Source of the DNA: an uncultured Rhizobium sp.
Lineage (GTDB): Bacteria > Pseudomonadota > Alphaproteobacteria > Rickettsiales > UBA1997
Direction of reading: 5' to 3'
NCBI GenBank assembly: GCA_964444545.1
Contig: CAYUHG010000003.1
Span: 36,106 to 100,105 of the forward strand
Length of the DNA: 64,000 bases
Below the pieces are notes generated by a model. It saw nothing but the letters and a program-made list of their open reading frames with translations. It was not told the DNA's origin and ran no database searches. The position numbers and the translations under genes were made by a program. Positions 28,139 to 55,574 of the stretch are shown one piece after another. Numbering within the stretch: the stretch's first letter is position 1; the number at the start of each line of letters is the position of its first letter.

Positions 28139-29008
28139 ATGATTGCAGAAACATTTACGGCACTTATTACACCTTTCAAAAACGGCAAAATTGATGAAAA
28201 ATCTTTGGAAAAATTAGTTGAATTCCAAATTGCAAATGGTGTTGACGGAATTGTTCCTTGCGGCACAACTGGTGAGTCTCCAACTCTATCTCACGAAGAA
28301 CATAATTTGGTTATTGATCTGTGCGTTAAAATCGCCAATAAACGCGTAAAAGTTATGGCGGGAACTGGATCAAATTCTACTGCTGAAGCGATTGCTATGA
28401 CTAATCACGCTAAAGAAATCGGCGCTGATTCTTGTTTGATTGTTGCTCCTTACTACAACAAACCAACCCCAGAAGGTGTTTATCAACATTTCAAAGCTTT
28501 AAACGAATGTGATATCCCTTTAATCGTTTACAACATTCCGGGACGTTCAGTAATTAATATCTCTGACGAAAATTTGGCGCGTATTGCTGAGTTGAAAAAT
28601 GTTGCCGGAATTAAAGATGCAACTGGCGATTTAGCTCGTGTTGCTAGCTTGCGCTTGTTGATCAAAAAACCATTTTCTTATTTGTCAGGCGAAGATGCTA
28701 CTGTTGTTGGATTCAACGCTATGGGCGGCAACGGTGTGATTTCAGTTACTTCAAATATCGCACCAAAATTAGTTTCTGACTTACAAAAATTTACTGCTAA
28801 AGGCGATTTCAAATCTGCTTTAGAAATCCAAGACAAACTTACCAGCCTTCACGCTGCAATGTTTTGCGAAACCAATCCAATTCCAATTAAATATGCTGCA
28901 AGCTTGATGGGATTGTGTAACGGTGAAATTCGTCTTCCTTTAGTTGAGCCTTCTGCAGGTGCTAAAGCAAGAATCGAATCTGAAATGAAGAAATTAGGAC
29001 TTATTTAG
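28139..29008 (+). CDS. dapA: 4-hydroxy-tetrahydrodipicolinate synthase
   Basis: GIVPCGTTGESPTLS, YYNKP, YNIPGRS, and the Schiff-base Lys context GIKDATGD. Confidence 0.9.
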   Translation: MIAETFTALITPFKNGKIDEKSLEKLVEFQIANGVDGIVPCGTTGESPTLSHEEHNLVIDLCVKIANKRVKVMAGTGSNSTAEAIAMTNHAKEIGADSCLIVAPYYNKPTPEGVYQHFKALNECDIPLIVYNIPGRSVINISDENLARIAELKNVAGIKDATGDLARVASLRLLIKKPFSYLSGEDATVVGFNAMGGNGVISVTSNIAPKLVSDLQKFTAKGDFKSALEIQDKLTSLHAAMFCETNPIPIKYAASLMGLCNGEIRLPLVEPSAGAKARIESEMKKLGLI

Positions 29009-30263
29009 CTAAAGTAAGCTTTTCCAAAAAAGTTAAGCTATCCGACAAGCTATCATTTCCAATTTTTTCCGCAGCTTGAGCTAGGGTAATTTTTTCTTTG
29101 CTAAATATTCCCGCCTTTTGTTCTAACACCAATATTCCGTAAGCATTAAAAGATACGCCACTTTCAAACCTAATACGATCAGAAGATAAAGTTTCTTTGG
29201 TAAAACTTTTTATCACCGCTACCAAATCCACTGGCAAATTTTTTCCAGAGAAAAGATTTTTTATTTCTTTTTGATAAGATTCTAAAATAGCGATTATTTC
29301 CTTGTTGGAATGAGCTTTAGCAATTTTTATAGCTTCTTCAATATTACCAATTCCCCACTGTAACAAAAGTGATAGAACTTCTTTTTTCCCTTTCGAAGCA
29401 GCCAAATATAAAATATCGTGACCAGAAGCAGTCTTGATATTTTTATCAGCACCATTTTCTAATAAAACTTGTGTTACCTTAACGTCACCAACGCTGATGC
29501 CAAATTGCAAAGCAGTTGTACCCGAAGTGGTTTTAAATTCTTTGTCAATTCCAGCTTTAATCAAAGCTAAGGTAACATCAGGAAATCCGCCAACTGCAGC
29601 ATAATGCAAAGCATTCATACAATGATTTTCTTCGGTAGTTTTCACATTTGTCTGCACTCTTTCTGCCAACAAAAATTCTACCACTGCTAAATGACCAAAC
29701 TCAGCTCCAACCAATAAAGGTGTTAATCCAAAAGATGTTTTTGCTTCTTTATCCGCACGATTAGCAATCAAAATTTTGATTACTTCTAAATGTCCACCTT
29801 TTGCTGCATAATGAATTGGTACCCATTCACGATCTTTTGGAGAAGATTTTGGGCTGATTTCAGCACCATTTTCCAATAAAACATTTACTACCTCAGCCCA
29901 ACCTCTTTTTGCCGCATGATGCAATGGCGTAAAAAAATTCTCATCACGAACAGAAGTATAAAACTTAGCATCGCGACCATCCATGGCTTTGCCAAAATCA
30001 CCATGATTAATATCCACCGTTACCAATTCTAAAACTCTTCTCAAAGATTCCGCAGCACCAAATTTTGCAGAAATATGCAAAATATTATTTCGCGGTTCAG
30101 CCAAAATATTTTTTACCTCTTCGCCATCCATTTTTGTCAGAATGTCGACATAATTGGCGATCAAGCTTCTTACTGTATCAAGATTCTCGAGGGAATTTTT
30201 TAAAATGATTTTGCCGGAAAATTCAGCAATTTTATCAGTAATTATGCTTAGTTCTTGATTCAT
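29001..30263 (-). CDS. Ankyrin-repeat protein (about 6-7 repeats)
   Basis: Repeated TPLHHAAKRGWAEVVNVLLENGA, VPIHYAAKGGHLEVIKILIANRA, NALHYAAVGGFPDVTLALIKAG and similar. No signal peptide is obvious. Confidence 0.8.
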   Translation of the reverse strand: MNQELSIITDKIAEFSGKIILKNSLENLDTVRSLIANYVDILTKMDGEEVKNILAEPRNNILHISAKFGAAESLRRVLELVTVDINHGDFGKAMDGRDAKFYTSVRDENFFTPLHHAAKRGWAEVVNVLLENGAEISPKSSPKDREWVPIHYAAKGGHLEVIKILIANRADKEAKTSFGLTPLLVGAEFGHLAVVEFLLAERVQTNVKTTEENHCMNALHYAAVGGFPDVTLALIKAGIDKEFKTTSGTTALQFGISVGDVKVTQVLLENGADKNIKTASGHDILYLAASKGKKEVLSLLLQWGIGNIEEAIKIAKAHSNKEIIAILESYQKEIKNLFSGKNLPVDLVAVIKSFTKETLSSDRIRFESGVSFNAYGILVLEQKAGIFSKEKITLAQAAEKIGNDSLSDSLTFLEKLTLAK

Positions 30264-30279
30264 TTTAGCTTAAATTAGA

Positions 30280-30825
30280 TTAACGACCACGACTATGTTG
30301 TCTGCCAGCAGCACGTTCTTTTGCTTCGATCATGCTTGCCCAGAAACCTTTATCGCCACGCTTATTAAGTATTTGTGCGGACTGAATTAAATAAGTCAAT
30401 TTTTGTCCTAAAATCATCGAAGTCCAAAATCCAACTGGCTTCACGATATCGACAATATTGATTTCATTGAGTTCTTTACGATCACGTTCTTTTTCTTCTG
30501 AGGCGATAATTTCGTAACTACCACTTTCAGCCTGACTTCTTTTTGCACGGATTTCTGCCTTAACTTCGGAATGAGCACGTGGAATTTCTGAAAACTTTTT
30601 ACGTAATAATTCGTCTTCTTCTTTGAGATATTTTTTTGATTTTTTAGGAAAGAGCTTTTGGCTCTTTTTTTTCATTTTGAGAAAATTTTGATAAGCACGT
30701 TCCAGCAAATAATTCAGAACGATACGAGCGACAATTATTGCAAAAAAAACACAAACCGAAATAACCGCTAAAATCGGCAACGCTTTCTCAGTAGCTACGA
30801 TAAATCCGGTGAAAAAATCTGACAT
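30280..30825 (-). CDS. Hypothetical membrane-anchored protein with Lys/Glu-rich region
   Basis: One N-terminal TM helix (LPILAVISVCVFFAIIVARIVL), then a charged low-complexity segment. No family recognised. Confidence 0.4.
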   Translation of the reverse strand: MSDFFTGFIVATEKALPILAVISVCVFFAIIVARIVLNYLLERAYQNFLKMKKKSQKLFPKKSKKYLKEEDELLRKKFSEIPRAHSEVKAEIRAKRSQAESGSYEIIASEEKERDRKELNEINIVDIVKPVGFWTSMILGQKLTYLIQSAQILNKRGDKGFWASMIEAKERAAGRQHSRGR

Positions 30826-30826
30826 A

Positions 30827-31321
30827 TTATCTGAGATTGTAGCAGGTTTCTTTCATCTTTGCATAAGCTTGAGGAAAGCCGATCAATGAATAAGTGTCGT
30901 TAGCAATTTTTCCTTCGCGAGTCGTACCAGTTACCACAAATTCTTCAGCACGCTGCATTTCTTTAATAATATCTATATCGTCATTTTTATCATTAGCCCA
31001 AGCCACAGCTAAGTAGGGGAAAAGGTAGTATTTTTTTGAACCAAAAGAAACTTCAACATCAGATCTTTTTTTATAAAGAAATCCAGAAGAGGCGCTGATT
31101 TCGTCGGCATCGTTAATAATATTAGTTACGAGGAAATAAGGTTCACCTCTTTTGTCGTAATTGCCTTCACGTTTAATTGGAGTAGAAGCAACGTAACATA
31201 CAATTTGATCACCTCTTTCGGCTTTAAAAACATTCCAATCCTGAAATTTTGCTTTTAATTCTTGAGCCTGAAGGTTTGAGCACAAAAACAGTAAAAAAGG
31301 TACGTATTTTATAAATTTCAT
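30827..31321 (-). CDS. Secreted hypothetical protein (possibly IalB-like)
   Basis: Signal peptide MKFIKYVPFLLFLCSNLQA|QE. Size and a W/C pattern loosely recall invasion-associated locus B family proteins. Weak call. Confidence 0.4.
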   Translation of the reverse strand: MKFIKYVPFLLFLCSNLQAQELKAKFQDWNVFKAERGDQIVCYVASTPIKREGNYDKRGEPYFLVTNIINDADEISASSGFLYKKRSDVEVSFGSKKYYLFPYLAVAWANDKNDDIDIIKEMQRAEEFVVTGTTREGKIANDTYSLIGFPQAYAKMKETCYNLR

Positions 31322-36014: not shown

Positions 36015-36046
36015 CCAGGCCATTTAAAAAAATGGTCGGGTTTTTT
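36015..36046 (+). terminator. Rho-independent terminator after pheT
   Basis: Stem 36015-36025 / 36030-36040 (11 positions, one mismatch, one G-U), followed by tttttt at 36041-36046. Confidence 0.55.
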
Positions 36047-36064: not shown

Positions 36065-36427
36065 TTATCTTTTTTCCATCAACTCTTCGTTGATGAATTC
36101 TACTACCAGCTGCAATTCACTTTTTACCTTTTGCATTAACGCATTTTTTTGTTCAGCTGTTTCTTCTGGATGATTTTGTGCATATTCCAAAACATTCGCC
36201 AACTCTAAGGCACCAATCGAAGCAGCTGCACCTTTAAAAGCGTGCGAAGACATATACCAAGAGTTGTCGTTTGCCACTTTTATTGCCTCTTGCATTTTTT
36301 CAATATTGCGATGGGCATTTTCAATAAAAATAGCGAATAATTCTTTCTCAAACTCGAAATCATTTTCAATGATGCTTCTTAGAAACTCTATATCGATAAC
36401 CTTTTTCGACTTTGAATCAGTAACCAT
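36065..36427 (-). CDS. Stand-alone histidine phosphotransfer (Hpt) protein
   Basis: 120 aa, four-helix pattern with the phospho-His motif SHAFKGAAASIGA. Confidence 0.8.
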   Translation of the reverse strand: MVTDSKSKKVIDIEFLRSIIENDFEFEKELFAIFIENAHRNIEKMQEAIKVANDNSWYMSSHAFKGAAASIGALELANVLEYAQNHPEETAEQKNALMQKVKSELQLVVEFINEELMEKR

Positions 36428-36438
36428 AAATTACACAA

Positions 36439-36924
36439 TTAGTTGATAACCAAGCTCAATGCCAAAGCACTAAGCCTTACGCCAGAATCTTTCACAGCTT
36501 TGGAATTTAGAATCAATTCAAAACTTCTGCGACCCATTTGAACCTGCACCATCCCACCACGCTCAGTAAAACCATCAAAAATGGCAATGGTCATAATTTT
36601 ATGTTTGCTGAACTTATCAATTTCAGCAGCAATACCTTTGATTGCACCAGTTGATACATATATTGCTTTGCAAGATGCAAACTTTGAACCGTCGCGAGAT
36701 AAATCAATTGAACCCTTTTCCTGACTAATGATTCTGGAAATCTCATCACTTCCCAAATAGCAAGTAGGACCTACTTTGGAAGTCTGAGTTGTATGCACTA
36801 AATCTTGAATGAACCCAGCAAAAGCTACCGCCTCTTCTTTATCTGTAATATCCGCACGAGCCTCTGCAAATACCACGAAGAACGTCAGCAACATTGCTAC
36901 GATTGGTTTTATAATCTTAAACAT
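36439..36924 (-). CDS. YfiR-like (DUF4154) periplasmic protein
   Basis: Signal peptide, then TIAIFDGFTERGGMVQVQMGRRSFELILNSKAVKDSGVRLSALALSLV. This matches my memory of the YfiR C-terminal consensus (GG..f... F.iN..a....l.isskLL.lA). Confidence 0.6.
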   Translation of the reverse strand: MFKIIKPIVAMLLTFFVVFAEARADITDKEEAVAFAGFIQDLVHTTQTSKVGPTCYLGSDEISRIISQEKGSIDLSRDGSKFASCKAIYVSTGAIKGIAAEIDKFSKHKIMTIAIFDGFTERGGMVQVQMGRRSFELILNSKAVKDSGVRLSALALSLVIN

Positions 36925-36951
36925 TATTGTTCTTAGGTCTTATCTGATGTC

Positions 36952-38934
36952 TTAATATTGCCAAACCATTTTCAAATAATAGGTACGGCCCACTACTGTT
37001 TGTCTGTTATACAAGGCACCCTTAAATTCTGAGTGGACTTGATCCATTAGGTTTCTGATACCAATACTTAAATCTAAGTTACGAGTCATCAGATAACCAA
37101 GTCTGGTATCCCAAGTAATATAAGAAGGGATGCCAGCAGTAGTATTCGTTACGCCTTTATTTAATCCTCCTACATAATAGAGGATGTTATCGAATTCTAA
37201 TTTCGGCGTAATGTTATAGAAAGATTTCAACTTAATCTGATCGCGTGGAGACTGACCTTCTGCATTTGATAAACTATCGCTATTTCTCAAAACCTGTTTT
37301 GTATCATCAGTTGAAGCAGAGCTTACATGAGTAAAAAGATTTAAGTGATCATAATTCACTTCCAACTTCCAGTTATCCGTCGCTTGCCATTTACCAGTAA
37401 GTTCGAAACCGTAAGATTCAGCAGAACCTAAATTCGCAAGTACCGGAGTTACACCGTTAGGATTATTTGACTCTAAAGTTCTGAGCTTGGAGTAATCATT
37501 ATAAAATACCGAAGCATCCAACAAAGTTTTGCTAGTTGGTTTAATTCTATAACCAGCTTCATAAGCGATTAGTTGTTCGATACCGTATGCTGGACTGCCC
37601 TGACTTACAACAGTAGCACTTGAACCGGTTCTGATAGTTACATCACTTTCACCACGAGTTGGTGTTCTAACTGATCTTGAAACTGCTGCCCAAAGAGTTT
37701 GATTACGTGCCGGATAATAAGATAATCTGGCATTTGGCTGATATTCAAATCCAGTGAAATCGTTTTTCTCAATTTTAGTACCGAGAGTTAAATATAGCTT
37801 ATCTGGAATTAAACCGATTTTATCTTGAATAAAGCCGCTAAACCACTGGTCGTTTCTCTTAGATGAAGAATAATGAAGCGGTAAATTACCGTTCACTTCA
37901 CTTTCGTTAATATGATCCATAATTTGTCTGTAGCCAACGCCCCAGATGAATTGATTCTCTTTGGAAAAATTGTAGAAATGCTGGAAGTCAACGTCGAAAG
38001 TTCGCGCTGCTCTTTTTAGAATTGGTATGCTGAATTGATCGTAATCTAAATAGCTGTTTAGAATAAAGTTTGATTTGTTGGATAATTTTTTGTTCCAGTT
38101 AACCACAAGATTCATACCTTTAGAATCTTTGTCATTCTTAGTTGGATTAGTTAGAGCAGAAAAATAATTTTGTGCTACACCACTAAAAGCATCGCCATGA
38201 ACTGTAATTGAGCTGTCTTTAATTGAGCTGATATCATATCTGAAACCAGCACGATCTTGTTTGATGCCATCATTATTACTTCCTACTCCGTCAGCACGAT
38301 CCAAACCAGCACGCACTGCTTTTTTTACGTAGAAACGATAGGCATCTTTGCTTTCAGTTTGACCACCATATCGCGCTTCAGTAATTGACTTGTCTTGATC
38401 GCCAACAATTTGTGAAACGTAAGTGCCTTGAGTTTGTACTGCACTTTTAGTGATAATATTGATAACACCGTTTACAGCGTTAGCACCCCAAATTGTTCCA
38501 CCTGGGCCTTTAACAACTTCGATTCTATCAACATCTTCAAGCACATAATCTTGAATATCCCAAACCGTACCAGAGAACAAAGTGGTATAAACAGTACGAC
38601 CATCAATCATCACTAGTAATTTGTTAGCAAATTGACGATTAAAACCGCGCGCAGTAATTGCCCATTTATTACCGTCCATTCTGGCAACTTGTAAACCAGG
38701 AACCATTCTTAAAGCTTCCGGAATTGAAGTAGCGCCAGATCTTCTAATATCTTCGGAAGACAAAACATAAGTAGCCGAAGGGGCATCAAAAGCGCTCTCT
38801 TTTTTCTTGGATAATGAGAATATTTCGGTGTTAAAAGTTGCATTTGCATCCTGTCCTCCTTTGCTATCAGCTTCTGCTGATGAACAAAAAGACGACATTA
38901 ACAAAGAAAAAGTAATTATTCCGAATCTTCTCAT
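36952..38934 (-). CDS. TonB-dependent outer-membrane receptor
   Basis: Signal peptide, plug-domain motifs (IPEALRMVPGLQV, DRIEVVKGPGGTIWGANAVNGVINIITK), a long beta-barrel, and a C-terminal aromatic residue (VWQY). Confidence 0.85.
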   Translation of the reverse strand: MRRFGIITFSLLMSSFCSSAEADSKGGQDANATFNTEIFSLSKKKESAFDAPSATYVLSSEDIRRSGATSIPEALRMVPGLQVARMDGNKWAITARGFNRQFANKLLVMIDGRTVYTTLFSGTVWDIQDYVLEDVDRIEVVKGPGGTIWGANAVNGVINIITKSAVQTQGTYVSQIVGDQDKSITEARYGGQTESKDAYRFYVKKAVRAGLDRADGVGSNNDGIKQDRAGFRYDISSIKDSSITVHGDAFSGVAQNYFSALTNPTKNDKDSKGMNLVVNWNKKLSNKSNFILNSYLDYDQFSIPILKRAARTFDVDFQHFYNFSKENQFIWGVGYRQIMDHINESEVNGNLPLHYSSSKRNDQWFSGFIQDKIGLIPDKLYLTLGTKIEKNDFTGFEYQPNARLSYYPARNQTLWAAVSRSVRTPTRGESDVTIRTGSSATVVSQGSPAYGIEQLIAYEAGYRIKPTSKTLLDASVFYNDYSKLRTLESNNPNGVTPVLANLGSAESYGFELTGKWQATDNWKLEVNYDHLNLFTHVSSASTDDTKQVLRNSDSLSNAEGQSPRDQIKLKSFYNITPKLEFDNILYYVGGLNKGVTNTTAGIPSYITWDTRLGYLMTRNLDLSIGIRNLMDQVHSEFKGALYNRQTVVGRTYYLKMVWQY

Positions 38935-38957
38935 GAATAAAAATTAAAGGTTAAAAA

Positions 38958-39692
38958 TTAAGACAGTTTAGCATGTATAGGAAATGTTCTGACATTATTG
39001 TATGTCTCGCCTTCTTGTCTTTGACGATTCATCACAATTTCCATTTCATATCCTAACTCTCTAAGAATTCTTCTGTAATCTCTACAAACTGCAGCAACAC
39101 CGACGGCGCAAATATAATTACATCCACGCTCTTTTGACATATTGATACCATGTTCAATAAGTACTTTAGAAACCGTTCTATCTCTTTCATTTCTTGCTAC
39201 AACAAAAGCAGAAACTTCGCTCAAAAGCAGATTCTCTCTTTTATCGTATTTTTGAACTATACTTAAATGCGTATAATCTTCTCCGACTGTATCATTTGAC
39301 AAAACATCACACTCTCCAGAAAACATTATTCTTGTGCCACCAATAACCTCATCACCTCTTACCGCAACAATAATATGACCAGCACGATCATATTTATTTT
39401 CAGAGCCATCATAACCCTGCCAACCATTCTCTCTGTTATAAGCTTCGTGACGCATTTGATAATATTGATCTAAAAGATTTTTGTCTTTTGTAGCAAAAAC
39501 TCGTACCTCTTTTTTTACTTCTTGAGAAGAGTCAACATCGTTACTATCAACGACTGATTCAATATTATTTTGCACTGATAATGGTGATTTATTTCTCAAT
39601 TGATCAACAAAACCAACTGAATGAAATTGATTGCTAATCTCGCGATCAACAGCTGCATCCATAGATTTTAACAATCTTGCTCTATCCTGCAT
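38958..39692 (-). CDS. GNAT-fold acyltransferase resembling LuxI / N-acyl amino acid synthase (FeeM-like) enzymes
   Basis: After a ~70-aa N-terminal extension: YYQMRHEAYNRENGWQGYDGSENKYDRAGHIIVAVRGDEVIGGTRI. This fits the R..(V/A)(F/Y)...GW...E.(D/N).YD...H.......(I/V)G..R pattern of autoinducer-synthase-like GNATs. Recognition from memory only. Confidence 0.45.
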   Translation of the reverse strand: MQDRARLLKSMDAAVDREISNQFHSVGFVDQLRNKSPLSVQNNIESVVDSNDVDSSQEVKKEVRVFATKDKNLLDQYYQMRHEAYNRENGWQGYDGSENKYDRAGHIIVAVRGDEVIGGTRIMFSGECDVLSNDTVGEDYTHLSIVQKYDKRENLLLSEVSAFVVARNERDRTVSKVLIEHGINMSKERGCNYICAVGVAAVCRDYRRILRELGYEMEIVMNRQRQEGETYNNVRTFPIHAKLS

Positions 39693-39959
39693 TACACTCC
39701 GTATTTGTTAGATTTGTCTCAACTTAAGAACTTGTTAATAAAATGTTCTTTTATGTAGATAAAAAGTTTGACAGCACTGGACTGCGAAATAGAAAATCCG
39801 CAATGACTCGTGATCAACAACCTTCTGTAGACACTAAAGGCTGGTGATCAGGAATTCTAAGGTCTCAGAAAAATACAATTACTTGGAAGGCTTGTTTTAA
39901 TATAAAATCAGACATGTTTCAAAAAGGAACTAACTAACAACAAACTGATATTTAAGGCC

Positions 39960-42830
39960 TTGTCGACATCAAATCCGCAAAATATTTCTGGCTCAGAAAA
40001 CAATAACTCAAAACGTCAGGGTTTTTTGTTTCCTGTAAAAAAATTACGTCTTGGATCTTTTTGGGATAATATTTTTTACCAACTCACCATCATCTATTTT
40101 GGCAGAAATGAATATTACCAAGAAAAAATAGTCAGACGCAGCAACGACGATCCAAACTATCCAAGAAGATTTAACAAAATTTATAAACGTTACAAAAAAA
40201 TTCACCGACCAAAAAATAAAGTCGAAAGCAAAATGGACTTAGCGCAGTCCTACACAATTTTCTCCTGCGTTTTGTTGCTACTGATTCTAAGCTTACTAAC
40301 CATAAACACTTTCGTAGTTTATCGCGGATTTTGGTATAACCTCGACAATCAAGTTAAATTCCAAAGCGGCGTTATTGAAAAAGCCTCAACCTCTTTGATG
40401 GGTGCTGTAGATAACTATATCAACTATGTCGGCGACAAACTTCTTACTCTTAAAGGCGAGAAAGACAAAAACACAATCGCACACATTTTACAAAAAACTC
40501 TAAACCGTGATGCGCTGCAAAAAAACGTCTCTTCATGGATTAACATTAGCTTCGTCAACAATGATGGTAAAGTAATCATCACTTCTGATGAAGGAGTTTT
40601 AAAAACACCAATTGATCCAAACGGTTATTTTCCTGTGCGTGAAGCAAAACAGAAAAATGCTTGGCGCTTAAAAGTTGGGCAACTCACTCACATCGAAACT
40701 GACATCGCTTCTTATAACATGCTTCCAGTAGCGATGCGTATCGACTATGACGATTTGAAACCAATCGGAACTTTCATCGCACAACTTCCAACCGAAGTTA
40801 TTCAAAGACAAATCGATTGGGTTTTCGGTGATGAAGATATTTGCTACATTGTAATCGACGATCATTTCGACATGCTGGCACATTCGGCAAGCTTTGATCC
40901 TCAGGCCTTTAACAAACCTTTCTTACGTTCGAAAAATTTCCTTCACGATATTTTTGATCAAACTTTGGCGAATGATTTTCTGCCTGAACGATTTAAAATG
41001 GGCGAATGTGTATTTACTTATTCACAAAAATCTGTCGGATATCACCTCGCCACACTTACTGGCTATCATCAAAAGAAATCTTGGAAAAATCTTACCTTCC
41101 AACTTTTGATTTCAGTAGGTCAATCTGCCGCCGTAGCATTTCTTTTCATGACAACAATTTTCATTTTCAAGAGAGTGAAAATTGGACCATTCGTAACTGA
41201 ATTAATTAAAGCTCGTATCGCTGCCGAAGCTGCCAGTGTAGCGAAAAGCCAATTCCTTTCTAACATGTCGCACGAGTTGCGAACTCCGATGAACGGAATT
41301 ATCGGTATGAGTCAAGCTTTGAAAGATTCCGGTAAATTAGGTGATGAGGAACAAGATCAAATTAACACTATTTATCGCTCTTCCGATGCACTTTTGATTA
41401 TCCTAAACGACATTCTGAATTTCTCTAAAATCGAAGCCAAGAAAGTTGATCTCGAACAAATCAATTTCAATCTACGTTCATTGGTTGAAGACATCGCAGA
41501 TTTAATGTCAGTTACTGCCAACAATAAAGGTTTGGAAGTGATCGTTGATATCAGCAAAGAATTGCCAGAAAACCTGATTGGCGATCCGGGAAGAATTCGT
41601 CAAATCACTACTAACTTAGTAAATAACGCCATCAAATTTACTTCTTACGGACAAATTTTGATTCAGATCAAATTAGATAGAGTTGAGAACGACAAATATT
41701 TCGTAAACTTCAACATAAAAGACAGTGGCATCGGTATTGATCCAGCAAAGATCGGAACCATGTTCACTAAATTTACACAAGCCGACATGTCGACCACCCG
41801 AAAATATGGCGGAACTGGTTTAGGACTTTCAATTTGCAAAGAATTAACTGAATTGATGCACGGTCAAATTGGTGTCGTCAGCGACTTTGGACAAGGTTCA
41901 AATTTCTGGTTCACTTTGCCGTTACCAAAATCTGAAAGCGAAGCACAAGACTTATTCATCGAACAGAAAAAACAATTAGCCGGCCGCAAAGTTGCAGTTG
42001 TTGAAGACAACATTATCGCCAAAAAAGTTTTGGAAGGAAATCTCAGCGACTTACAAATGACTCACTGCGTTATCAGCACCCATGACATCGATTCTGCAGA
42101 AGATAAAATTAATTTTGCCGTCAGTGAACTAGAAAAATTTGCTGGATGTGAAGCAATATTAATCAGTCACAACTCTTTTTTTGGAATCAATTCTCTCGAT
42201 TTGGCTGAACGTATTCGTAGTAATGAGAAATTGAAAAATATTCCTCTGATACTGGTAATTCTGCTGCAAGAAAAAATCAAAATTCCGCCAGAAAAATTAA
42301 AATTATTTGATCGCATCATTGCCAAACCAATCAAGATGAATCGCTTGCTACAAGCTTTGTTCTTCGCTCTCAAAATCACTTATTACGAAGAAGAAGGTGT
42401 GTTGATTGAGAAAGGTGTTGCCAAAATTGAAGATCAACAAACTAAAGGCATGAAATTGTTGTTGTGTGAAGACAATGAAGTAAACATGAAAGTTGCGACG
42501 ACAATTTTAAAACGTATGGCCTTCAATATTGAATTTGCTGAAAACGGTCAAGAAGCGCTCAACAAATTCCTTCACGTTAAATATGACGTAATTCTGATGG
42601 ATTGTATGATGCCAATTATGGATGGATTTGAAGCGACAAAACGTATTCGCGAAATCGAAAAAGAAACTGGCGCACAACCAACTTGTATCATTGCATTAAC
42701 CGCAAACGCTACGGAAGAAGATCGTAAAAAATGTTTAGAACTTGGCATGAACGATTTCGTTTCCAAACCAATCAAACGCGAATCAATCGAAGAAGTAATG
42801 AAACGCTGTTTTAAGAATAGTAAGCAGTAA
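39960..42830 (+). CDS. Hybrid sensor histidine kinase: periplasmic Cache-like domain, HisKA, HATPase_c, pseudo-receiver, receiver
   Basis: TM helices around res 100-120 and 385-405 flank a ~260-aa extracytoplasmic domain. H-box [19 protein letters not shown]-box [26 protein letters not shown], and the final receiver [13 protein letters not shown] ... SKP. The start is uncertain: TTG 39960 or ATG 40233. Confidence 0.85.
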
Positions 42831-42852
42831 GTCATTCAAGTTACAAATCACA

Positions 42853-42892
42853 AAAAAAAGCCGCTGCAACTTTTCAGTTACAGCGGCTTTTA
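42853..42892. terminator. Bidirectional rho-independent terminator
   Basis: A-run, then stem gccgctgcaact (42860-42871) / agttacagcggc (42876-42887) with one mismatch, then tttt. Lies between the convergent hybrid kinase and FadL-like genes. Confidence 0.65.
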
Positions 42893-42918
42893 AACTTCAA
42901 AAGAAGATTTTTTAAAAA

Positions 42919-44139
42919 CTAAAATTCTTTTTTCAAAGCCAGCGAGAACACATCCACTTTGGTTTTGTAGTGAACGTTGATATCTTGAGTTGTACTGCCA
43001 TTTCCTTTCAAATTAGTAACGGCATTTCTGTAGAATTGATGTAAGTAAGTTGCGTCAACTGACAATGTTTTTGAGAATTTATAATTGAAACCAATTGAAG
43101 TCCAAACTTTGTCCGATGAAGGAACTGCCGGATTTCTGTTGGCATCAGTCATCGCTTCTTTTTCATAAGCCAAACCAGTTCTTAGCAACCATTTGTCGTT
43201 AAGTGTGAAATTGGCACCAACTGAATGTAAGAAAGAATCATGCCAGTTGAAAGATGAAGTCGCACTTAAGTTTGAATTTTGATAAGCATTAACTTGCAAA
43301 CTTTTCAAACGTGACCAACGCGTCCAAGTTAAATCATAAGCCAATTCAGTTGCCGGATTTAATTTGTAAGCTGTACCAATAGTTAAAGATTCTGGTGTCG
43401 AAGTTTTAGCCTGCATGTCCGAATATCCAAAGCCATGCGCTTGAACAGTTCCAACGATATTGTGATCGATTTTTGAACGATAACCAATACCAAATTTCAG
43501 ATTTTCTGTTGCCTGATATTTTGCACCCAAATTGAAACCATAACCCCAATCGCTACCTTGAACTTTAGTGTAATAAGTCGAAGCCGTGCTGCTAGTAAGT
43601 TGTGATCTATAATATTGCGCTTGGAAACCAGCACCCAAAGACAAATCTTTATTCACTTTATAAGAAACGCTTGGGTTGATGTTGATTGTTGTAATTGAAC
43701 TTGCGATCGCACGATCCAAACCTTGCCAATTATCAGTATATCTAGTTGCCAAACCAAATGGCGAAGTAATTGCTAAACCAAAAACCGCATCTTCGTTAAT
43801 TCTTTTCGCAACGTAAAGAGCTGGAACAACTCCATTTACACCGGCATCGTGAACGTTAGCAGTTTTTGAAGTTCCATCAGATTTGCTGCCGCCATTAGTA
43901 TTAATTTTTAAATCTAAATAGCTTGCCGACAAAACAAACTCACCATTCTCAACATCTGACAAAATAGCTGGGTTAAAAAACATATCGCTGACATCATGAA
44001 TACCAGTCACTGATCCGGCATAAGAGTTTGCCAAACCTGAAGTTGAAGTCAGTTCTGTAGAATAGCCAGCAGCCATAGCATCGCCACCAGCGATGACCAA
44101 AGCCAAAGACGTCACAAAAAGTTTTTTATTTAGTTTCAT
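42919..44139 (-). CDS. FadL/OMPP1/TodX family outer-membrane transporter for hydrophobic compounds
   Basis: Signal peptide, N-terminal hatch motif LANSYAGSVTGIHDVSDMFFNPA, an alternating beta-strand pattern, and C-terminal KKEF. Confidence 0.8.
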   Translation of the reverse strand: MKLNKKLFVTSLALVIAGGDAMAAGYSTELTSTSGLANSYAGSVTGIHDVSDMFFNPAILSDVENGEFVLSASYLDLKINTNGGSKSDGTSKTANVHDAGVNGVVPALYVAKRINEDAVFGLAITSPFGLATRYTDNWQGLDRAIASSITTININPSVSYKVNKDLSLGAGFQAQYYRSQLTSSTASTYYTKVQGSDWGYGFNLGAKYQATENLKFGIGYRSKIDHNIVGTVQAHGFGYSDMQAKTSTPESLTIGTAYKLNPATELAYDLTWTRWSRLKSLQVNAYQNSNLSATSSFNWHDSFLHSVGANFTLNDKWLLRTGLAYEKEAMTDANRNPAVPSSDKVWTSIGFNYKFSKTLSVDATYLHQFYRNAVTNLKGNGSTTQDINVHYKTKVDVFSLALKKEF

Positions 44140-44289
44140 AGATTTTTTTTATTGTTGAGAAGTAACACGATCAGCAAAAAAAATTGCTTGGTGAGCAGTT
44201 TCATAAACAACAAAAAAAATACACAACGCTATCGTCAGAGAAATTTACTAACAAAAACAAACTGTCACAAAATGCAAAACACCAATTTT

Positions 44290-46107
44290 CTAATGTGTTG
44301 TTGATTTAGTTAGATTCTTCGCAATCAGCTGCATCAAATAATCCGGCTCATCACCTTTGATAAAATAGTCGTTTATTGCAGAGTTTACACCACATTGATC
44401 ATCGTCACCACTAATTGCGATAATTGGGATCGCGTGCTTTTGATCAATTTTATTTTCCCTCTCCAAACTTCTAATTTCCGCTGCAACTTCATGACCATTT
44501 TTCAGCGGCATCGAAATATCAGTTAGAATCAAATCAAATTTTGATTCACCATTTTCGCTTAAATTATTTTTATAAATCTTCAGTAACTCATAACCGTTTC
44601 TGACCTTGGTAACATTCATGCCAAACGATGTCAGATTTGTTTCCATCGCAATCAAATTCAATTCGCGATCATCCGCAATCAACACTTCTTTTCCGCTTAA
44701 TAATTCGATTAAATCTGCACGAGATATTTTATTTTCTGGCAAAATTTCTGCTGGTTTTGAGCGAATATTTTTAACTTCAATTTGTGAAATTTGCGGAAAC
44801 AACAAACTAAATTTTGTCCAACCATTTTCTCTTTGGCCATTTTCTCTTTGGCCATTTTCTCTCCGGCTATTTTCACCTTCACCAAATTCTGATTCGCAAA
44901 TAATATCCCCACCAAATGCTTTCATATTGCGCCTACAAAATGCTAGCCCCAAGCCAGTTCCGCTTTTCTTTCCTGATGTATAAAAATCACCAAATAAATT
45001 TTCGATTTCTTGCGCAGCAATTCCCGGACCATTATCTTCAACGTAAATCACGTTATAGTTCTGACCCTTCAGAACTCTTTTTTCGATGCCGACTTTCACC
45101 ATCAAATTGGAAAATTGCGCATCGTAATAAAGTGAATTTTTCAAAAGATTATAAATGATGAATGACAGCCTGTCCGGCACAGCTTTGAAGAAAAAATCAT
45201 CCTGAGAATTTATCGATATCTTTACTTTTTTTCTTTCTTGCTGTTGTGCATAACCATATTGCTCAACAATCCGCGGCAAAATTTCACTCGCTCTTAAATA
45301 AGAAAATTCTGCAAAATTAATCGGTTTTTTCTGCAAGTCTGAGAGAGCAATATTAATAATTGCGTTGGCTTGTTTGATTGTGTCCGAAACCAACTGCATC
45401 GAATTTTCAATCTTAACAATATCAAAATTTTTAGAATTTTTGGCCTTCGATTTAACGTCCGAAATTGTTAAATTAATCGCATTCAAAGGATTACGCATTT
45501 CGTGAACTAGAGAAGCTGTAAGAGACAACATCTCACTATATAATTTTTCGATCGCCACCGCCCTGCCGCTATAATTAAAACACATGCCAACAAAGCCGCT
45601 GAAAACTATACAAATTAGATACGCTGAAACATCGAACTGCGGATGAAGATCAGAAAAATTTCCGCCACTAATCAAGAAAGCCAGAATCGCACCACCAACA
45701 CCAATCATTAAATCGATAAGATAAATCAACCAATTAGGCACACACAAAGCCAGCAACAAAACACCAAATATTTCCCAATAAAGCCAAACTTCGTGAAAGT
45801 TATTTTTCAGTAAATTGTAAGTGAAAACAAACGGCAAAGAATTGATCACCATCAAATGCCAATAAAATGGAAAATATTTTTCACGCAAGCGAGGCGACAA
45901 TAAATAATTTCCCGCCACACTAACACAAATTAGCGATGCCGCCAACCTTACATAAATATTTTCGTGAAGACCAAAAGCGTATTTATAAACAAAGTAAAAA
46001 ACAAAATGCGCAATCCCACCAGTCAAAGCAGCCGTAAGAATCGTCGGCTTACCAATCAAAGTTCCTTCTTGCCAGGCATTGATCAGAAACTGTTTTAGAT
46101 TCGACAC
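44290..46107 (-). CDS. Hybrid sensor kinase A: CqsS/LqsS-like multi-helix membrane sensor, kinase core, receiver
   Basis: GTG start. About 6 TM helices (YFPFYWHLMV, LPFVFTYNLLKNNFHEVWLYWE), H-box LVHEMRNPLNAI, IYNLLKNSLYY, GTGLGLAFCRRNMKAFGGDIICES, WTKFSLLFPQ, receiver LILTDISMP. The CqsS-likeness is judged from remembered motifs. Confidence 0.75.
   Translation of the reverse strand: MSNLKQFLINAWQEGTLIGKPTILTAALTGGIAHFVFYFVYKYAFGLHENIYVRLAASLICVSVAGNYLLSPRLREKYFPFYWHLMVINSLPFVFTYNLLKNNFHEVWLYWEIFGVLLLALCVPNWLIYLIDLMIGVGGAILAFLISGGNFSDLHPQFDVSAYLICIVFSGFVGMCFNYSGRAVAIEKLYSEMLSLTASLVHEMRNPLNAINLTISDVKSKAKNSKNFDIVKIENSMQLVSDTIKQANAIINIALSDLQKKPINFAEFSYLRASEILPRIVEQYGYAQQQERKKVKISINSQDDFFFKAVPDRLSFIIYNLLKNSLYYDAQFSNLMVKVGIEKRVLKGQNYNVIYVEDNGPGIAAQEIENLFGDFYTSGKKSGTGLGLAFCRRNMKAFGGDIICESEFGEGENSRRENGQRENGQRENGWTKFSLLFPQISQIEVKNIRSKPAEILPENKISRADLIELLSGKEVLIADDRELNLIAMETNLTSFGMNVTKVRNGYELLKIYKNNLSENGESKFDLILTDISMPLKNGHEVAAEIRSLERENKIDQKHAIPIIAISGDDDQCGVNSAINDYFIKGDEPDYLMQLIAKNLTKSTTH
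44823..44882 (-). repeat. In-frame 15-bp tandem repeat encoding (RENGQ)n inside kinase A
   Basis: On the + strand: ccattttctctttgg x2, ccattttctctccgg, then a degenerate unit. Protein reads GENSRRENGQRENGQRENGWTKF. Confidence 0.85.
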
Positions 46108-46223
46108 AGGAATTAAAATTTGGTTAAATTGAGATTGGGATGATGTGATTTATTACAAATGATTATCAACTTACGCAGTTCTTAAAATTTCACTTAAGCG
46201 CAACAGAAAACTAATTTTCAAAG

Positions 46224-47543
46224 ATGATCAATTTCGTAAAAAAAGCTTTTGCTGAAGGCACAAGTATAGAAAGATATAACATACTTGCCGCAGTTTTTTT
46301 AGGCTCACTTGCACATATGTCGCTGTGGTTTTTATACAGCTTTGTTTTTCCAATGAAGTTTGAGAGTTTTTATTTGAGATTATTTCTCTCAATTCTGTGC
46401 TCTGTAGCTTATTCTTACAAATATCTGCCACAAAAAATCAGAACTCACTATTTTCCAATTTATTGGCACTTCATGGTAATGATGGCTTTGCCTTGTCATT
46501 GCACGTTTCTTCTACTTATGAATGATTTTCATCCATCATATTTATATTGGGAAATTTTTTGTGTGGTCACCATGATAATTTATATACCACACTGGTTTGC
46601 TGCCCTGACAAATCTTTTTGTTTCTTTAGTTTTAGCAGTTGTTGCTTACTACATAATGTCTCCAGAACCATATTTGATAGGCCTTATTCATGGTTTTGAT
46701 TATGCGCCATATCTTTTGGTTTTTTCTTTTGCCACTTTTTCCAGTATGATTTTTTCTCATGCAAACAGAACTACCTGGCTGGAAAAACAACAAAAACAAC
46801 TAACCGCACTTGCCGGCTCGGTTGCTCATGAATTGCGCAATCCACTTGGCGTAATCAACTCGGCACAAACGCAAATCAATTTAGTTTCTCGCACTGTCAA
46901 ATCCGAAAATTTAGACAAGTTTAAAGACAAAATCCAAAACCTCGCGCACATCATCGCTGAATCTGTAGTTCAGGCCAACGACATCATCAACCTCACCTTG
47001 TCTGACGTTACGGGAAAAAAATTCAGCTCTGATCAAATTATCAACATCGACGCCAAAACTGTGATCAATGAAATAGTCGAGAAATTTGGTTACGAAAATT
47101 CTGAGCAAAAAAATATCATAAAAATAAAGATCGACTCCTCCAACAGCTTCAACTTCAAAGCCAACCATGAACGCTTCAGCTGCATCGCTTCCAACCTAAT
47201 CCAAAACTCTCTTTATTACCTCAAAGATTTTGCAAACCTTAACATCACAATCGGCACCGAGCAAAAAGATTTCTTAGGCCAAAAATACAACGTAATCTAC
47301 TTCCTAGACAACGGACCAGGAATCAAAACCGAAAACCTCAACAACATCTTCAATGACTTCTACACCGAAGGGAAAAATAACGGAACAGGGTTGGGTTTGT
47401 CTTTCTGTAAACGTAACATGAAAGCGTTTGGCGGAGACATCATCTGCGAATCACAATTCGGTAACGTATCAAACGGCAAAAGGGAAAATGGTTGGACGAA
47501 ATTTAGTTTGTTGTTTCCGCAAGTTTTTTATTCAACTCCATAA
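46224..47543 (+). CDS. Sensor kinase B: CqsS/LqsS-like membrane sensor and kinase core, no receiver
   Basis: N-terminal YNILAAVFLGSLAHMSLWFLYSFVFPMKFESFYLR, YFPIYWHFMV, LMNDFHPSYLYWE. H-box AGSVAHELRNPLGVI, GTGLGLSFCKRNMKAFGGDIICES, WTKFSLLFPQ. Confidence 0.75.
   Translation: MINFVKKAFAEGTSIERYNILAAVFLGSLAHMSLWFLYSFVFPMKFESFYLRLFLSILCSVAYSYKYLPQKIRTHYFPIYWHFMVMMALPCHCTFLLLMNDFHPSYLYWEIFCVVTMIIYIPHWFAALTNLFVSLVLAVVAYYIMSPEPYLIGLIHGFDYAPYLLVFSFATFSSMIFSHANRTTWLEKQQKQLTALAGSVAHELRNPLGVINSAQTQINLVSRTVKSENLDKFKDKIQNLAHIIAESVVQANDIINLTLSDVTGKKFSSDQIINIDAKTVINEIVEKFGYENSEQKNIIKIKIDSSNSFNFKANHERFSCIASNLIQNSLYYLKDFANLNITIGTEQKDFLGQKYNVIYFLDNGPGIKTENLNNIFNDFYTEGKNNGTGLGLSFCKRNMKAFGGDIICESQFGNVSNGKRENGWTKFSLLFPQVFYSTP
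46809..47526 (+). repeat. Copy 1 of a ~720-bp near-identical direct repeat (kinase core of B)
   Basis: Aligns colinearly with 52842-53574 at an offset of 6033 nt. By eye there is no difference over 46947-47317. The identical antisense ORFs in the track (46911-47168 and 52977-53201) confirm this. Confidence 0.85.
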
Positions 47544-47827
47544 ATCTCTTTTTGAAACACTGTTTGGAATATCTTGAAATCAGCCATTCTGGCAGTTGTG
47601 TTTTTTTGGGATAAGAATTTTTTAATCTAATCAGATTGGCGTCTTCTTTAGATTATTATAACTCAAAAACCCTCACTTCTAAAGTTAGATTCAGTCTTCA
47701 ACTAAATTGTCTAATACAAAGGCAATAAATTTTTACAGCACTTGCGATTTTCTAATTCAAGAGCTGTGAATTTCTTCAAATACACCTCAGAGTTAGCGTT
47801 TTTTTAAACTAAAAATGGGAACAAAAA

Positions 47828-48796
47828 ATGCAAATCGCAGCTCGTGTTGAATCAAATTACTGTGATCGTAATTTTGTACATAATTTAAGCAAAAATATAA
47901 AAAGTTTGAGCTTTTCTGAAATTTTTTTATTTGCTTTAAAACAGGCAAAAAAAGTCGAAATATCTGAGGTACTTAAAAAAATATGTGTTTCACCTCCATA
48001 TTTTGCATTTCAGGAAATCTATCGATACGAATCTTTTCTGATAGCTCCTATTACTCCACAACAAGTAATAGAGTTTGAAAGCACTCCAATGTCTTCCGCT
48101 GAAGCTGGTAGACACCTAGCAATATTGGGAAGCTGTTCTTTAGCTATTGATGAAGTTGAAAAAAATTATTATTTAGCTCACAAAGCTCTTAAAAAAATAG
48201 GATCTGATTTCAAAAACACTGAAAAACTATATGTTGTTGCCTGCCCTAGTTTATCAGAAAATGACAAGGGTTCGGCATCTTCTGCTTATACAGCTTTAGT
48301 TAATCAAAACGGAGACATAATATTTGAAATGGATATCCTATTCCAGAAAGTTTCAGTCAGACTTTTTAACAGAATATTCAAAGAGCATCTAAGAGAAACG
48401 CAATCTATTGACTACAATCCTTACGAGAAAGTTGTGCGTTTAATAAATATCACGGAGACTAATTCTGGAATCAAAGCTGAACTACCATTAATGAACGACT
48501 CAGAATGTTCTGGTCATTTTGATGGGGCTCCTATGTTACCAGTTGGAACTATGTCTTACATAATTACAAATCATATTGGTAATTTTCTTAGAAAGATTGA
48601 TGGACAATCAAATGGTAGATATTCATTAGTTAGTGCTGATTTAGAACTATTTGAACCAACAAATATAAGAAAAAGAGAATTCGTAGAAATAAATTATGGT
48701 GGAAAAATTGATAACGTTCACAATATCTCATGGGTTGTCAGAGGAGAATCCGGAAAAGAAAGAAATAGAATGCAGTTATTTTTTACCCATAAGTAA
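47828..48796 (+). CDS. Hypothetical protein with FabA/FabZ/AfsA-like hot-dog signature (possibly double hot-dog)
   Basis: GGGA lies 7 nt upstream of the ATG. The C-terminal half has CSGHFDGAPMLPVGTMSYIITNHIG (compare FabZ GHFPxxPVMPGV). The N-terminal half has AEAGRHLAILGSCSLAI. No other family recognised. Confidence 0.4.
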   Translation: MQIAARVESNYCDRNFVHNLSKNIKSLSFSEIFLFALKQAKKVEISEVLKKICVSPPYFAFQEIYRYESFLIAPITPQQVIEFESTPMSSAEAGRHLAILGSCSLAIDEVEKNYYLAHKALKKIGSDFKNTEKLYVVACPSLSENDKGSASSAYTALVNQNGDIIFEMDILFQKVSVRLFNRIFKEHLRETQSIDYNPYEKVVRLINITETNSGIKAELPLMNDSECSGHFDGAPMLPVGTMSYIITNHIGNFLRKIDGQSNGRYSLVSADLELFEPTNIRKREFVEINYGGKIDNVHNISWVVRGESGKERNRMQLFFTHK

Positions 48797-48823
48797 GTTT
48801 CGTTTTTTAGAGAGGAAATAAGG

Positions 48824-51439: not shown

Positions 51440-51452
51440 TATTCCAAAACAA

Positions 51453-53579: not shown

Positions 53580-53737
53580 GATATTAATAAAACCTCATTA
53601 CGAGAAGCACAGCCAGCCGGAAATCCAGTTTTAGATAGATTCTGGATTAACACGCTACGCTAACGATAACGAAGTGAATCGATATTTTTCATCGAATCAT
53701 AATCAAAAATTCGAGAACAATCATAAATATTACAAAC

Positions 53738-55567: not shown

Positions 55568-55574
55568 AATCATC

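Follow-up and report, generated by a model that had tools for sequence, protein, structure and literature searches.

A TonB-dependent receptor, a YfiR-like protein and a divergently encoded hybrid kinase in an uncultured Rickettsiales genome, and the phylum-spanning module to which they relate

Does a cluster of five genes, for an acyltransferase, a TonB-dependent receptor (TBDR), a YfiR-like periplasmic protein, a stand-alone histidine phosphotransfer (Hpt) protein and a hybrid sensor kinase, work as one signalling circuit, and along which route would information travel through it? The cluster lies in a stretch of 64,000 nucleotides (nt) from an uncultured member of the Rickettsiales (GTDB UBA1997), namely positions 36,106–100,105 of the forward strand of contig CAYUHG010000003.1 in GenBank assembly GCA_964444545.1. 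This whole stretch is called the window below; all positions are given in its own numbering, and L and P numbers refer to related loci and proteins, respectively. An initial annotation, made from the sequence alone, had proposed a self-contained circuit and knew of no described system with this composition. We found that the receptor, the YfiR-like protein and the kinase belong to a combination that recurs in at least eight phyla. The balance tips, if only slightly, towards the locus being a lineage-specific rearrangement of that phylum-spanning module, in which the YfiR-like protein would gate the kinase and the TBDR would stand in YfiB's place.

Gene families at the locus and the wider module

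The features of the locus are the following:

38958–39692, minus strand: LuxI/FeeM-like N-acyl synthase (GNAT fold), 244 amino acids (aa); first gene of the putative operon
36952–38934, minus strand: TBDR, 660 aa; second gene of the putative operon
36439–36924, minus strand: YfiR-like (DUF4154) periplasmic protein, 161 aa; third gene of the putative operon
36065–36427, minus strand: stand-alone Hpt phosphotransfer protein, 120 aa; last gene of the putative operon
39960–42830, plus strand: hybrid sensor histidine kinase, 956 aa, TTG start; divergent from the putative operon
39693–39959, no strand: divergent intergenic region between synthase and kinase, with three conserved blocks

The 161-aa protein had been assigned to the DUF4154/YfiR family at the outset, and profile searches bear this out. 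It matches Pfam DUF4154 (PF13689) in its C-terminal half only, with 40 bits (gathering score 24.9); the same family was found in all 44 of its homologs, and a profile of 39 TBDR-linked DUF4154 proteins, the window's included, matches the solved YfiR (4zhu) over nearly its full length (3.4e-16). A signal peptide is visible in its sequence and is kept in its clade, and the clade alignment identifies the C-terminal half as the most conserved portion. The protein has only two cysteines, C55 and C85, both invariant in the clade; their positions are compatible with the C71–C110 pair of YfiR by sequence, not by structure, and the C145–C152 pair is without counterpart. YfiR binds both YfiN and YfiB via one conserved C-terminal surface, and its cysteines respond to redox state (PMC4655355).

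The TBDR consists of a signal peptide, a Pfam Plug domain (residues 49–157) and a 22-strand-type barrel (residues 215–629). The plug directly follows the signal peptide; Pfam gave no other domain match, and there is no N-terminal signalling extension. By far the best NCBIfam model, over the full length, is NF053590 (TOL_0244 family TBDR), with 598.2 bits against a cutoff of 645. The YfiR-like protein scores only 20.2 bits with NF053591 (TOL_0243 family YfiR-like periplasmic protein; cutoff 125). That models exist for TOL_0244 and TOL_0243 implies that database curators had already noticed the pair. Our literature searches (DUF4154, YfiR-like or CHASE8 with TonB; N-acyl amino acid synthase (NAS) with TBDR and kinase) found no paper describing the module, and it appears that nobody has characterised this pair, already named in databases. 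The TBDR has more than 8000 homologs, of which the one at rank 120 is still 56% identical; two paralogs of the same family stand side by side on several contigs (e.g., P0099/P0156, P0074/P0123 and P0138/P0144).

The wider family was surveyed by scanning the TBDR alignment against one genome per species, which yielded 80 loci from at least eight phyla, among them Alpha-, Gamma- and Deltaproteobacteria, Verrucomicrobia, Planctomycetes, Acidobacteria, Nitrospinota, Bacteroidota and others. The gene maps recur: a TBDR, a gene of approximately 170–215 aa and one of 480–1000 aa. By Pfam, the gene directly after the TBDR encodes DUF4154 in 39 out of 39 cases; the second gene (n = 35) carries HATPase_c in 29, HisKA in 28, CHASE8 in 27, HAMP in 27, REC in 13 and Hpt in 11 cases, and the third is a Response_reg protein in 13 out of 19, some with GGDEF, EAL or HD-GYP domains. 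A conserved gene upstream of the TBDR was also considered and rejected, as the upstream genes are heterogeneous outside the window's lineage.

Custom hidden Markov models (HMMs) were used to count DUF4154 genes in the 71 loci with enough downstream sequence to be informative. Such a gene is present in 65 of them and missing from six; it lies immediately downstream of the TBDR in 51, upstream in two and elsewhere in the locus in 12, the last being mostly offsets of the calling of open reading frames (ORFs). A kinase follows DUF4154 in 36 out of 47 loci, a stand-alone Hpt does so in the five loci of the window's clade, and the stop codon of the TBDR often overlaps the start codon of DUF4154. Linkage at this frequency within one TBDR family would be surprising if the receptor and the YfiR-like protein had no direct functional link.

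Two DUF4154 genes flank the TBDR in some loci (L027, 7331–7924 and 10010–10543; L030, 3861–4664 and 10361–10720). An apparent TBDR–DUF4154 fusion in L054, an ORF of 1079 aa, proved to be an artefact of GC-rich DNA, in which a long ORF runs out of frame; the true TBDR ORF has 667 aa, and DUF4154 is encoded separately. Pseudomonas aeruginosa PA3268–PA3271, considered as a known example, is not one: PA3271 is a CrbS/MxtR-type kinase.

The canonical order is thus TBDR, YfiR-like protein, CHASE8-HAMP sensor kinase and response regulator; it spans at least eight phyla and is experimentally uncharacterised. The periplasmic domain of YfiN, the part bound by YfiR, is classed as CHASE8 (PMC8085984), so that the canonical module pairs a YfiR homolog with the type of sensor that YfiR is known to gate. 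The novelty that the initial annotation had seen in the composition does not hold, since the TBDR, YfiR-like and kinase combination spans phyla and the pair is named in NCBIfam; only three features are specific to the lineage, namely its synthase, its separately encoded Hpt and its divergently transcribed kinase with dCache.

Conservation and transcription of the arrangement

The five-gene arrangement, with the kinase divergent from synthase, TBDR, DUF4154 and Hpt, also occurs in eight other uncultured species-level genomes (L087, L003/L004, L005/L006, L007, L008, L009 and L011), so that the survey of gene order suggested by the initial annotation found the neighbourhood conserved with differing flanks. 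Identity ranges between 54 and 80% for the TBDR, between 55 and 75% for the YfiR-like protein (measured in L087, L003 and L005) and between 43 and 75% for the kinase (five-gene loci and L001), while the flanking genes vary: pheT/ATP synthase, putA, HAD hydrolase/ferredoxin/ccmC or lytB. The carriers are all uncultured metagenome-assembled genomes (MAGs), labelled as alphaproteobacterial or Rickettsiales, several of them from lakes. One of them, L009 (CAMDRL010000002.1), is labelled “MAG: Rickettsia typhi” and yet groups with freshwater alphaproteobacterial MAGs; the label looks wrong.

In the related locus L001, the kinase is divergent from DUF4154 and Hpt only, the TBDR and the synthase being gone. 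The persisting adjacency of kinase, DUF4154 and Hpt argues that these three work together. The Hpt ortholog directly follows DUF4154 in every locus of the clade, L001 included. In the window, the 120-aa protein passes the Pfam Hpt threshold (30.6 bits; gathering score 24.6), in agreement with its first description as a stand-alone Hpt; its His62 lies within HAFKG, and NCBIfam models indicate a weak resemblance to the Hpt domains of LuxU, TorS and ArcB.

Gene coordinates, the gaps of 23 nt (synthase/TBDR), 27 nt (TBDR/DUF4154) and 11 nt (DUF4154/Hpt) and the divergent kinase were all reproduced from the ORF list. The initial annotation had put the distance between the divergent genes at about 270–540 nt; it is 267 nt between the kinase and synthase starts, or 540 nt with Met92 as the kinase start. 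The alignment of orthologs favours the upstream TTG, because the segment preceding the first transmembrane (TM) helix is conserved. The TBDR and DUF4154 genes abut or overlap in L005, L008 and L012, which fits co-transcription, and we infer from spacing and conservation that the four minus-strand genes probably form one operon.

These data also bear on the idea that the genes are functionally unrelated neighbours, in an order that is coincidental in a compact genome, to which we assign a next to negligible likelihood. Unrelated signalling genes abound in the region, and consensus scans of the locus for promoters and terminators, which did not rise above shuffled sequence, give no positive support for a single transcript. 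Order and orientation are nevertheless kept at 43–75% protein identity despite the changing flanks, the gaps are only 11–27 nt, and the linkage of TBDR, DUF4154 and kinase recurs across phyla.

Three blocks stand out in an alignment of seven orthologous intergenic regions and are candidate operator or promoter elements: 39711–39731, immediately upstream of the synthase start; 39766–39777, holding TTGACA, a candidate −35 element of the kinase; and 39915–39931, upstream of the kinase start. The best promoter-like match in the region is at 39768–39797 on the plus strand. The blocks are retained among relatives with 50–75% protein identity, and the third persists in L001, though that locus is without synthase and TBDR. 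At the other end of the putative operon, a hairpin with a T-run (36018–36037) lies between the convergent pheT (ending at 35939) and Hpt (ending at 36065) genes; it is plausibly the terminator of pheT and is perhaps used in both directions.

Sensor kinase, synthase and the route of the signal

Hydropathy places the TM helices of the kinase at approximately aa 97–120 and 381–404. They enclose a periplasmic domain of some 260 aa (approximately aa 121–380; nt 40320–41099), the size that the initial annotation had given. The order from the N-terminus is a conserved cytoplasmic segment, TM1, the periplasmic domain, TM2, HisKA, HATPase_c, a pseudo-receiver and a receiver. Pfam recognises HisKA, HATPase_c and one Response_reg domain, and matches neither HAMP nor CHASE8 nor an Hpt domain in the kinase. 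Approximately aa 675–800 (nt 41982–42359, plus strand) are receiver-like, with ISHN instead of Asp at the acceptor position in all orthologs; as in kinases of the BarA/RcsC type, a pseudo-receiver here separates the ATPase from the true receiver. The phosphorelay residues are predicted to be H438 in SHELRTP (HisKA), D881 in ILMDCMMP (receiver) and H62 of the Hpt.

The sensor was described at first as Cache-like, and this stands with a qualification. The window's own domain reaches only 22.5 bits with dCache_1 (PF02743), under the gathering score of 45, and six out of seven orthologous periplasmic domains are likewise sub-threshold (22.5–25.6 bits). A search of 1.84 billion representatives with the periplasmic domain returned only 59 related clusters; dCache_1 is matched by 20 of the 44 that were examined (best 2e-13), and no other sensor family competes. 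Because of these 20 relatives, we accept the domain, by transitive homology only, as a probable divergent dCache. Its profile matched no PDB sequence, and a single-sequence AlphaFold2 (AF2) model was unusable (pLDDT 30). A hidden CHASE8 is ruled out: hhalign against 30 CHASE8 N-termini of canonical-module kinases gave a probability of 0.3%.

The core of the kinase (aa 410–956, from HisKA to the receiver) aligns end to end with canonical CHASE8 hybrid kinases of other phyla, for instance with that of L053 (362 bits), which runs on into a C-terminal Hpt; when a shorter core (aa 416–660) was searched separately, the window's five other kinases scored only E = 1e-8 to 1e-12. The end-to-end alignment is consistent with a swap of the sensor (dCache for CHASE8-HAMP), inversion of the kinase gene and fission of the Hpt.

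On the reading that we favour, the lineage would have inverted the kinase gene, replaced CHASE8-HAMP by dCache and split off the Hpt as a separate gene. The YfiR-like protein would bind the periplasmic domain of the kinase and so set its activity; the TBDR, in the position that YfiB holds in YfiBNR, would alter this hold upon binding or importing its ligand, for which it could either capture the YfiR-like protein or pass a ligand on to it. Phosphate would then pass from H438 to D881, on to H62 of the Hpt and finally to a response regulator encoded outside the module, and the synthase, added at the head of the operon, may make the ligand of the receptor. That the kinase is without an Hpt and the operon supplies one counts in favour of this phosphorelay. 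In this scheme, the genes present, their families, their conservation and the canonical architecture are observed; we infer all of the protein–protein contacts and the ligand, and likewise whether regulation is positive or negative and what the output is.

Several observations weigh against it. The kinase is without CHASE8, the one domain known to bind YfiR, and we know of no precedent for a contact between a YfiR-like protein and a dCache domain; the proposed contact therefore stands on weaker ground here than it would in the canonical module, and the analogy with YfiBNR drawn by the initial annotation holds for the homology of YfiR but not for the sensor of the kinase. The YfiR-like protein itself has diverged, its Pfam match being partial and its NF053591 score low. 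The likeness of the kinase cores may reflect only the general BarA/TorS class, and no response regulator is encoded in the five-gene module. Clues to the ligand of the TBDR are likewise wanting: Rfam has no family in 39693–39959, apart from a single tRNA, scans for riboswitches and other RNAs that would tell of a ligand came up empty in the window, in four related loci and in eight canonical ones, no Fur box is evident by eye in the divergent intergenic region, and the TBDR is only distantly related to TBDRs of solved structure. Finally, parts of the locus occur apart from each other, in L001 as well as in L041 and L045 (see below), so that coupling between TBDR and kinase is not obligatory.

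The first gene of the putative operon had been described as an acyltransferase; the fold agrees, and the assignment can be refined. The window protein itself matches only Acetyltransf_1 in Pfam, at 20.5 bits (gathering score 20.7), with no match to FeeM and none to Autoind_synth (PF00765) even at E ≤ 10. Its N-terminal 58 or so residues are variable and predicted to be disordered, and close homologs number only about 10, one of which is annotated by JGI as an AHL (N-acyl-homoserine lactone) synthetase. Above the FeeM gathering score of 27 are the orthologs L003 (29.7), P0053 (28.9) and P0054 (30.6), the others scoring 14–22 bits; with Autoind_synth, orthologs reach 19–23.6 bits, below the gathering score of 24 (L008 being the highest, at 23.6). 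Against PDB, the family profile is significant only for the AHL synthases RpaI (4e-5) and BjaI (6e-4). The match passes through an N-terminal block, RHxxY..ENGW..DGxE..D..GGxR, the residues of which are invariant in the family and correspond to the LuxI-type block (R..F/Y..W..D/E..D..R).

The AF2 model of the synthase has a GNAT fold, with pLDDT 70–94 in the core. Foldseek ranks FeeM (2g0b) third for it, with LasI, BjaI and RpaI in the top 25 among generic GNATs. The invariant E159, in the predicted strand 157–165, is a candidate counterpart of the catalytic Glu95 in FeeM. These comparisons place the acyltransferase, at the level of its family, in the LuxI/FeeM branch of the GNAT N-acyl synthases, the window protein alone staying below the LuxI and FeeM thresholds. 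This kinship makes a role in making a molecule more plausible than it would be for a generic GNAT: enzymes of this branch produce AHLs or N-acyl amino acids (PMC4897644). NAS genes are also linked to other envelope systems, such as PEP-CTERM/exosortase, according to Craig et al. 2011 as cited in PMC4897644.

The synthase has distant homologs (46–65 bits with the family HMM), the genes of which immediately precede members of this TBDR family in L041 (7068–9953), L045 (3975–6742) and L016 (1924–4009), and the link between synthase and receptor is therefore seen in a second context. In L041 and L045, no DUF4154 or kinase is nearby, leaving a bare synthase–receptor pair that neighbours FadB-like, MutS and FliI/FliJ genes.

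Such pairs lend credit to an alternative that we hold to be unlikely but credible, namely that two independent sub-modules share one operon and no information passes from the receptor to the YfiR-like protein. Synthase and TBDR would make and retrieve an acylated metabolite, siderophore-like or a lipid or surfactant; the YfiR-like protein, kinase and Hpt would constitute a separate YfiR-type sensor of envelope stress or redox state, regulating synthase and TBDR or something else. L041 and L045 are examples of the first half by itself and L001 of the second, and the redox response of the YfiR cysteines finds an echo in the two invariant cysteines of the window's clade. What this explanation leaves aside is the presence of DUF4154 in 65 of the 71 informative loci of this TBDR family, over at least eight phyla and often with overlapping codons; moreover, the heterogeneity of the gene upstream of the TBDR outside the lineage implies that the receptor has no general biosynthetic partner.

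The synthase also underlies the closed autocrine loop proposed in the initial annotation, which we find doubtful. An N-acyl signal would be exported, re-enter via the TBDR, be sensed by the YfiR-like protein, the dCache domain or both and be relayed through the Hpt, which would amount to TonB-dependent quorum sensing. The enzyme's LuxI/FeeM kinship, its leading position in the corresponding operons of eight further genomes and the distant homologs upstream of the TBDR family in three further loci all speak for it, and dCache domains are small-molecule sensors. Yet the window synthase stays below the LuxI and FeeM thresholds, so that an N-acyl product is only putative, TonB-dependent import is not normally required for hydrophobic acyl signals, and no LuxR-type or other dedicated receptor is encoded at the locus. 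The canonical module works without a synthase, so that the ancestral ligand of the receptor is not the product of this enzyme, and L001 retains the signalling genes without it. Of the self-contained circuit, the gene families, the conservation and the want of an Hpt in the kinase are confirmed; the sub-modules are separable, and a synthase product that serves as TBDR ligand or sensed signal is conjectural.

Surroundings, meaning and known systems

Extending beyond the locus, a dense signalling island (39960–56942) comprises six histidine-kinase genes, at 39960, 44290, 46224, 48824, 51453 and 53738, of which that at 48824 is a hybrid with two REC domains and an Hpt and that at 51453 is of the 7TM type; a 455-aa protein with a C-terminal receiver is encoded at 55575–56942. 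The response regulator absent from the module could come from any of these genes, and any of them could also engage in cross-talk with the separate Hpt. The kinase at 44290–46107 (minus strand) is a LuxN-like hybrid (NF041945, 7e-42); its N-terminal part has about six TM segments, and a threefold RENGQ repeat (“RRENGQRENGQRENGW”) is inserted within its ATPase domain. Between it and the kinase of the locus lies a gene for an outer-membrane channel of the FadL/TodX family for hydrophobic compounds (42919–44139, minus strand; 2e-80), a possible alternative route for acylated molecules that is not syntenic in relatives. A quorum-sensing module including the FadL channel and the LuxN-like kinase was rejected, as neither is adjacent in L087, L003 or L005. 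On the other side (29001–31321, minus strand) stand genes for an IalB-like protein and for an ankyrin-repeat protein of 420 aa. In L001 and L087, they keep their synteny with the ATP synthase/pheT block, and they hint at a host-associated lifestyle of the lineage.

As far as we know, the one role described for YfiR is that of a periplasmic brake on a single diguanylate cyclase. The locus belongs to a larger set in which a YfiR-family protein lies between a highly conserved TBDR and a sensor kinase in many phyla. If the relay that we favour is true, the capture of ligands at the outer membrane would be converted into phosphorelay signalling on a wide scale, and many orphan TBDRs of the TOL_0244-like family would be given a function. 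The window variant is a natural experiment, with an apparently swapped sensor, a split Hpt and a gained synthase, that can show which contacts are essential, and its LuxI/FeeM-like enzyme is a concrete candidate for the source of the ligand. The broader linkage of TBDR, YfiR-like protein and kinase is the more valuable lead. Carriers of the variant are uncultured; the canonical module has culturable carriers and occurs, for instance, in L049 (Thiocystis minor DSM 178). FecA-type transducers and SusC-associated hybrid two-component systems are two TonB-linked routes of signalling. A third route for surface signalling, in which an adaptor of the YfiR family reads the receptor and gates a kinase in at least eight phyla and which is coupled here to a synthase for the import and sensing of the cell's own N-acyl product, is an appealing idea that we rate as improbable in this full form.

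Among known systems, the TOL_0244/TOL_0243 pair is the closest in kind: the TBDR is of the same family, DUF4154 lies immediately downstream on the same strand (27-nt gap in the window) and the hybrid-kinase core is similar, but the window proteins stay below the cutoffs (598 versus 645 and 20 versus 125 bits). The window departs from the canonical module in that Hpt follows DUF4154, the kinase is divergent and carries a probable dCache, a synthase precedes the TBDR and there is no response regulator. As in FecA-FecR-FecI transducers, the TBDR is proposed to signal to an inner-membrane regulator without or besides transport. Unlike FecA, however, it has no N-terminal signalling extension (the plug begins at residue 49), no anti-sigma or extracytoplasmic function (ECF) sigma gene was found among the ORFs neighbouring the locus, and the relay would run via a soluble YfiR-like protein to a kinase.

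In the Vibrio LuxPQ/LuxN-LuxU system, too, hybrid kinases without an Hpt feed a small stand-alone Hpt, and in LuxPQ the kinase has a periplasmic domain of the double-PAS/Cache type and is controlled by an accessory protein of the periplasm, a gating that is only proposed at the window locus. An acyl-signal synthase is encoded nearby as well, and the LuxU and LuxQ models give weak matches. These scores are, however, far under the cutoffs (LuxU 19.5 versus 140; LuxQ 307 versus 1200), and the locus has a YfiR-like instead of a LuxP-type accessory protein, no LuxO-type regulator and a TBDR in the putative operon. With the LuxI and FeeM synthases, the predicted enzyme shares the GNAT fold, the N-terminal LuxI block, the FeeM and near-threshold Autoind_synth matches of its orthologs and, as a candidate, the Glu of the central strand, which is invariant in its family; it differs by its disordered N-terminal extension of about 58 residues, its mere 10 or so close homologs and the want of a LuxR partner.

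The comparison that frames the locus best is with YfiBNR/HmsCDE of P. aeruginosa, Escherichia coli and Yersinia pestis. The partner of the YfiR-like protein here is a HisKA-HATPase_c-REC phosphorelay kinase in which Pfam finds no GGDEF domain; the outer-membrane part is a TBDR, and no OmpA/Pal-like YfiB is encoded among the adjacent ORFs; the window sensor is probably dCache, not CHASE8, and at most one cysteine pair of YfiR has a possible counterpart. What the systems have in common is a secreted DUF4154/YfiR protein encoded beside an inner-membrane enzyme with a periplasmic sensor and an outer-membrane partner, and the canonical TBDR-linked module shares with YfiN the CHASE8-HAMP sensor itself.

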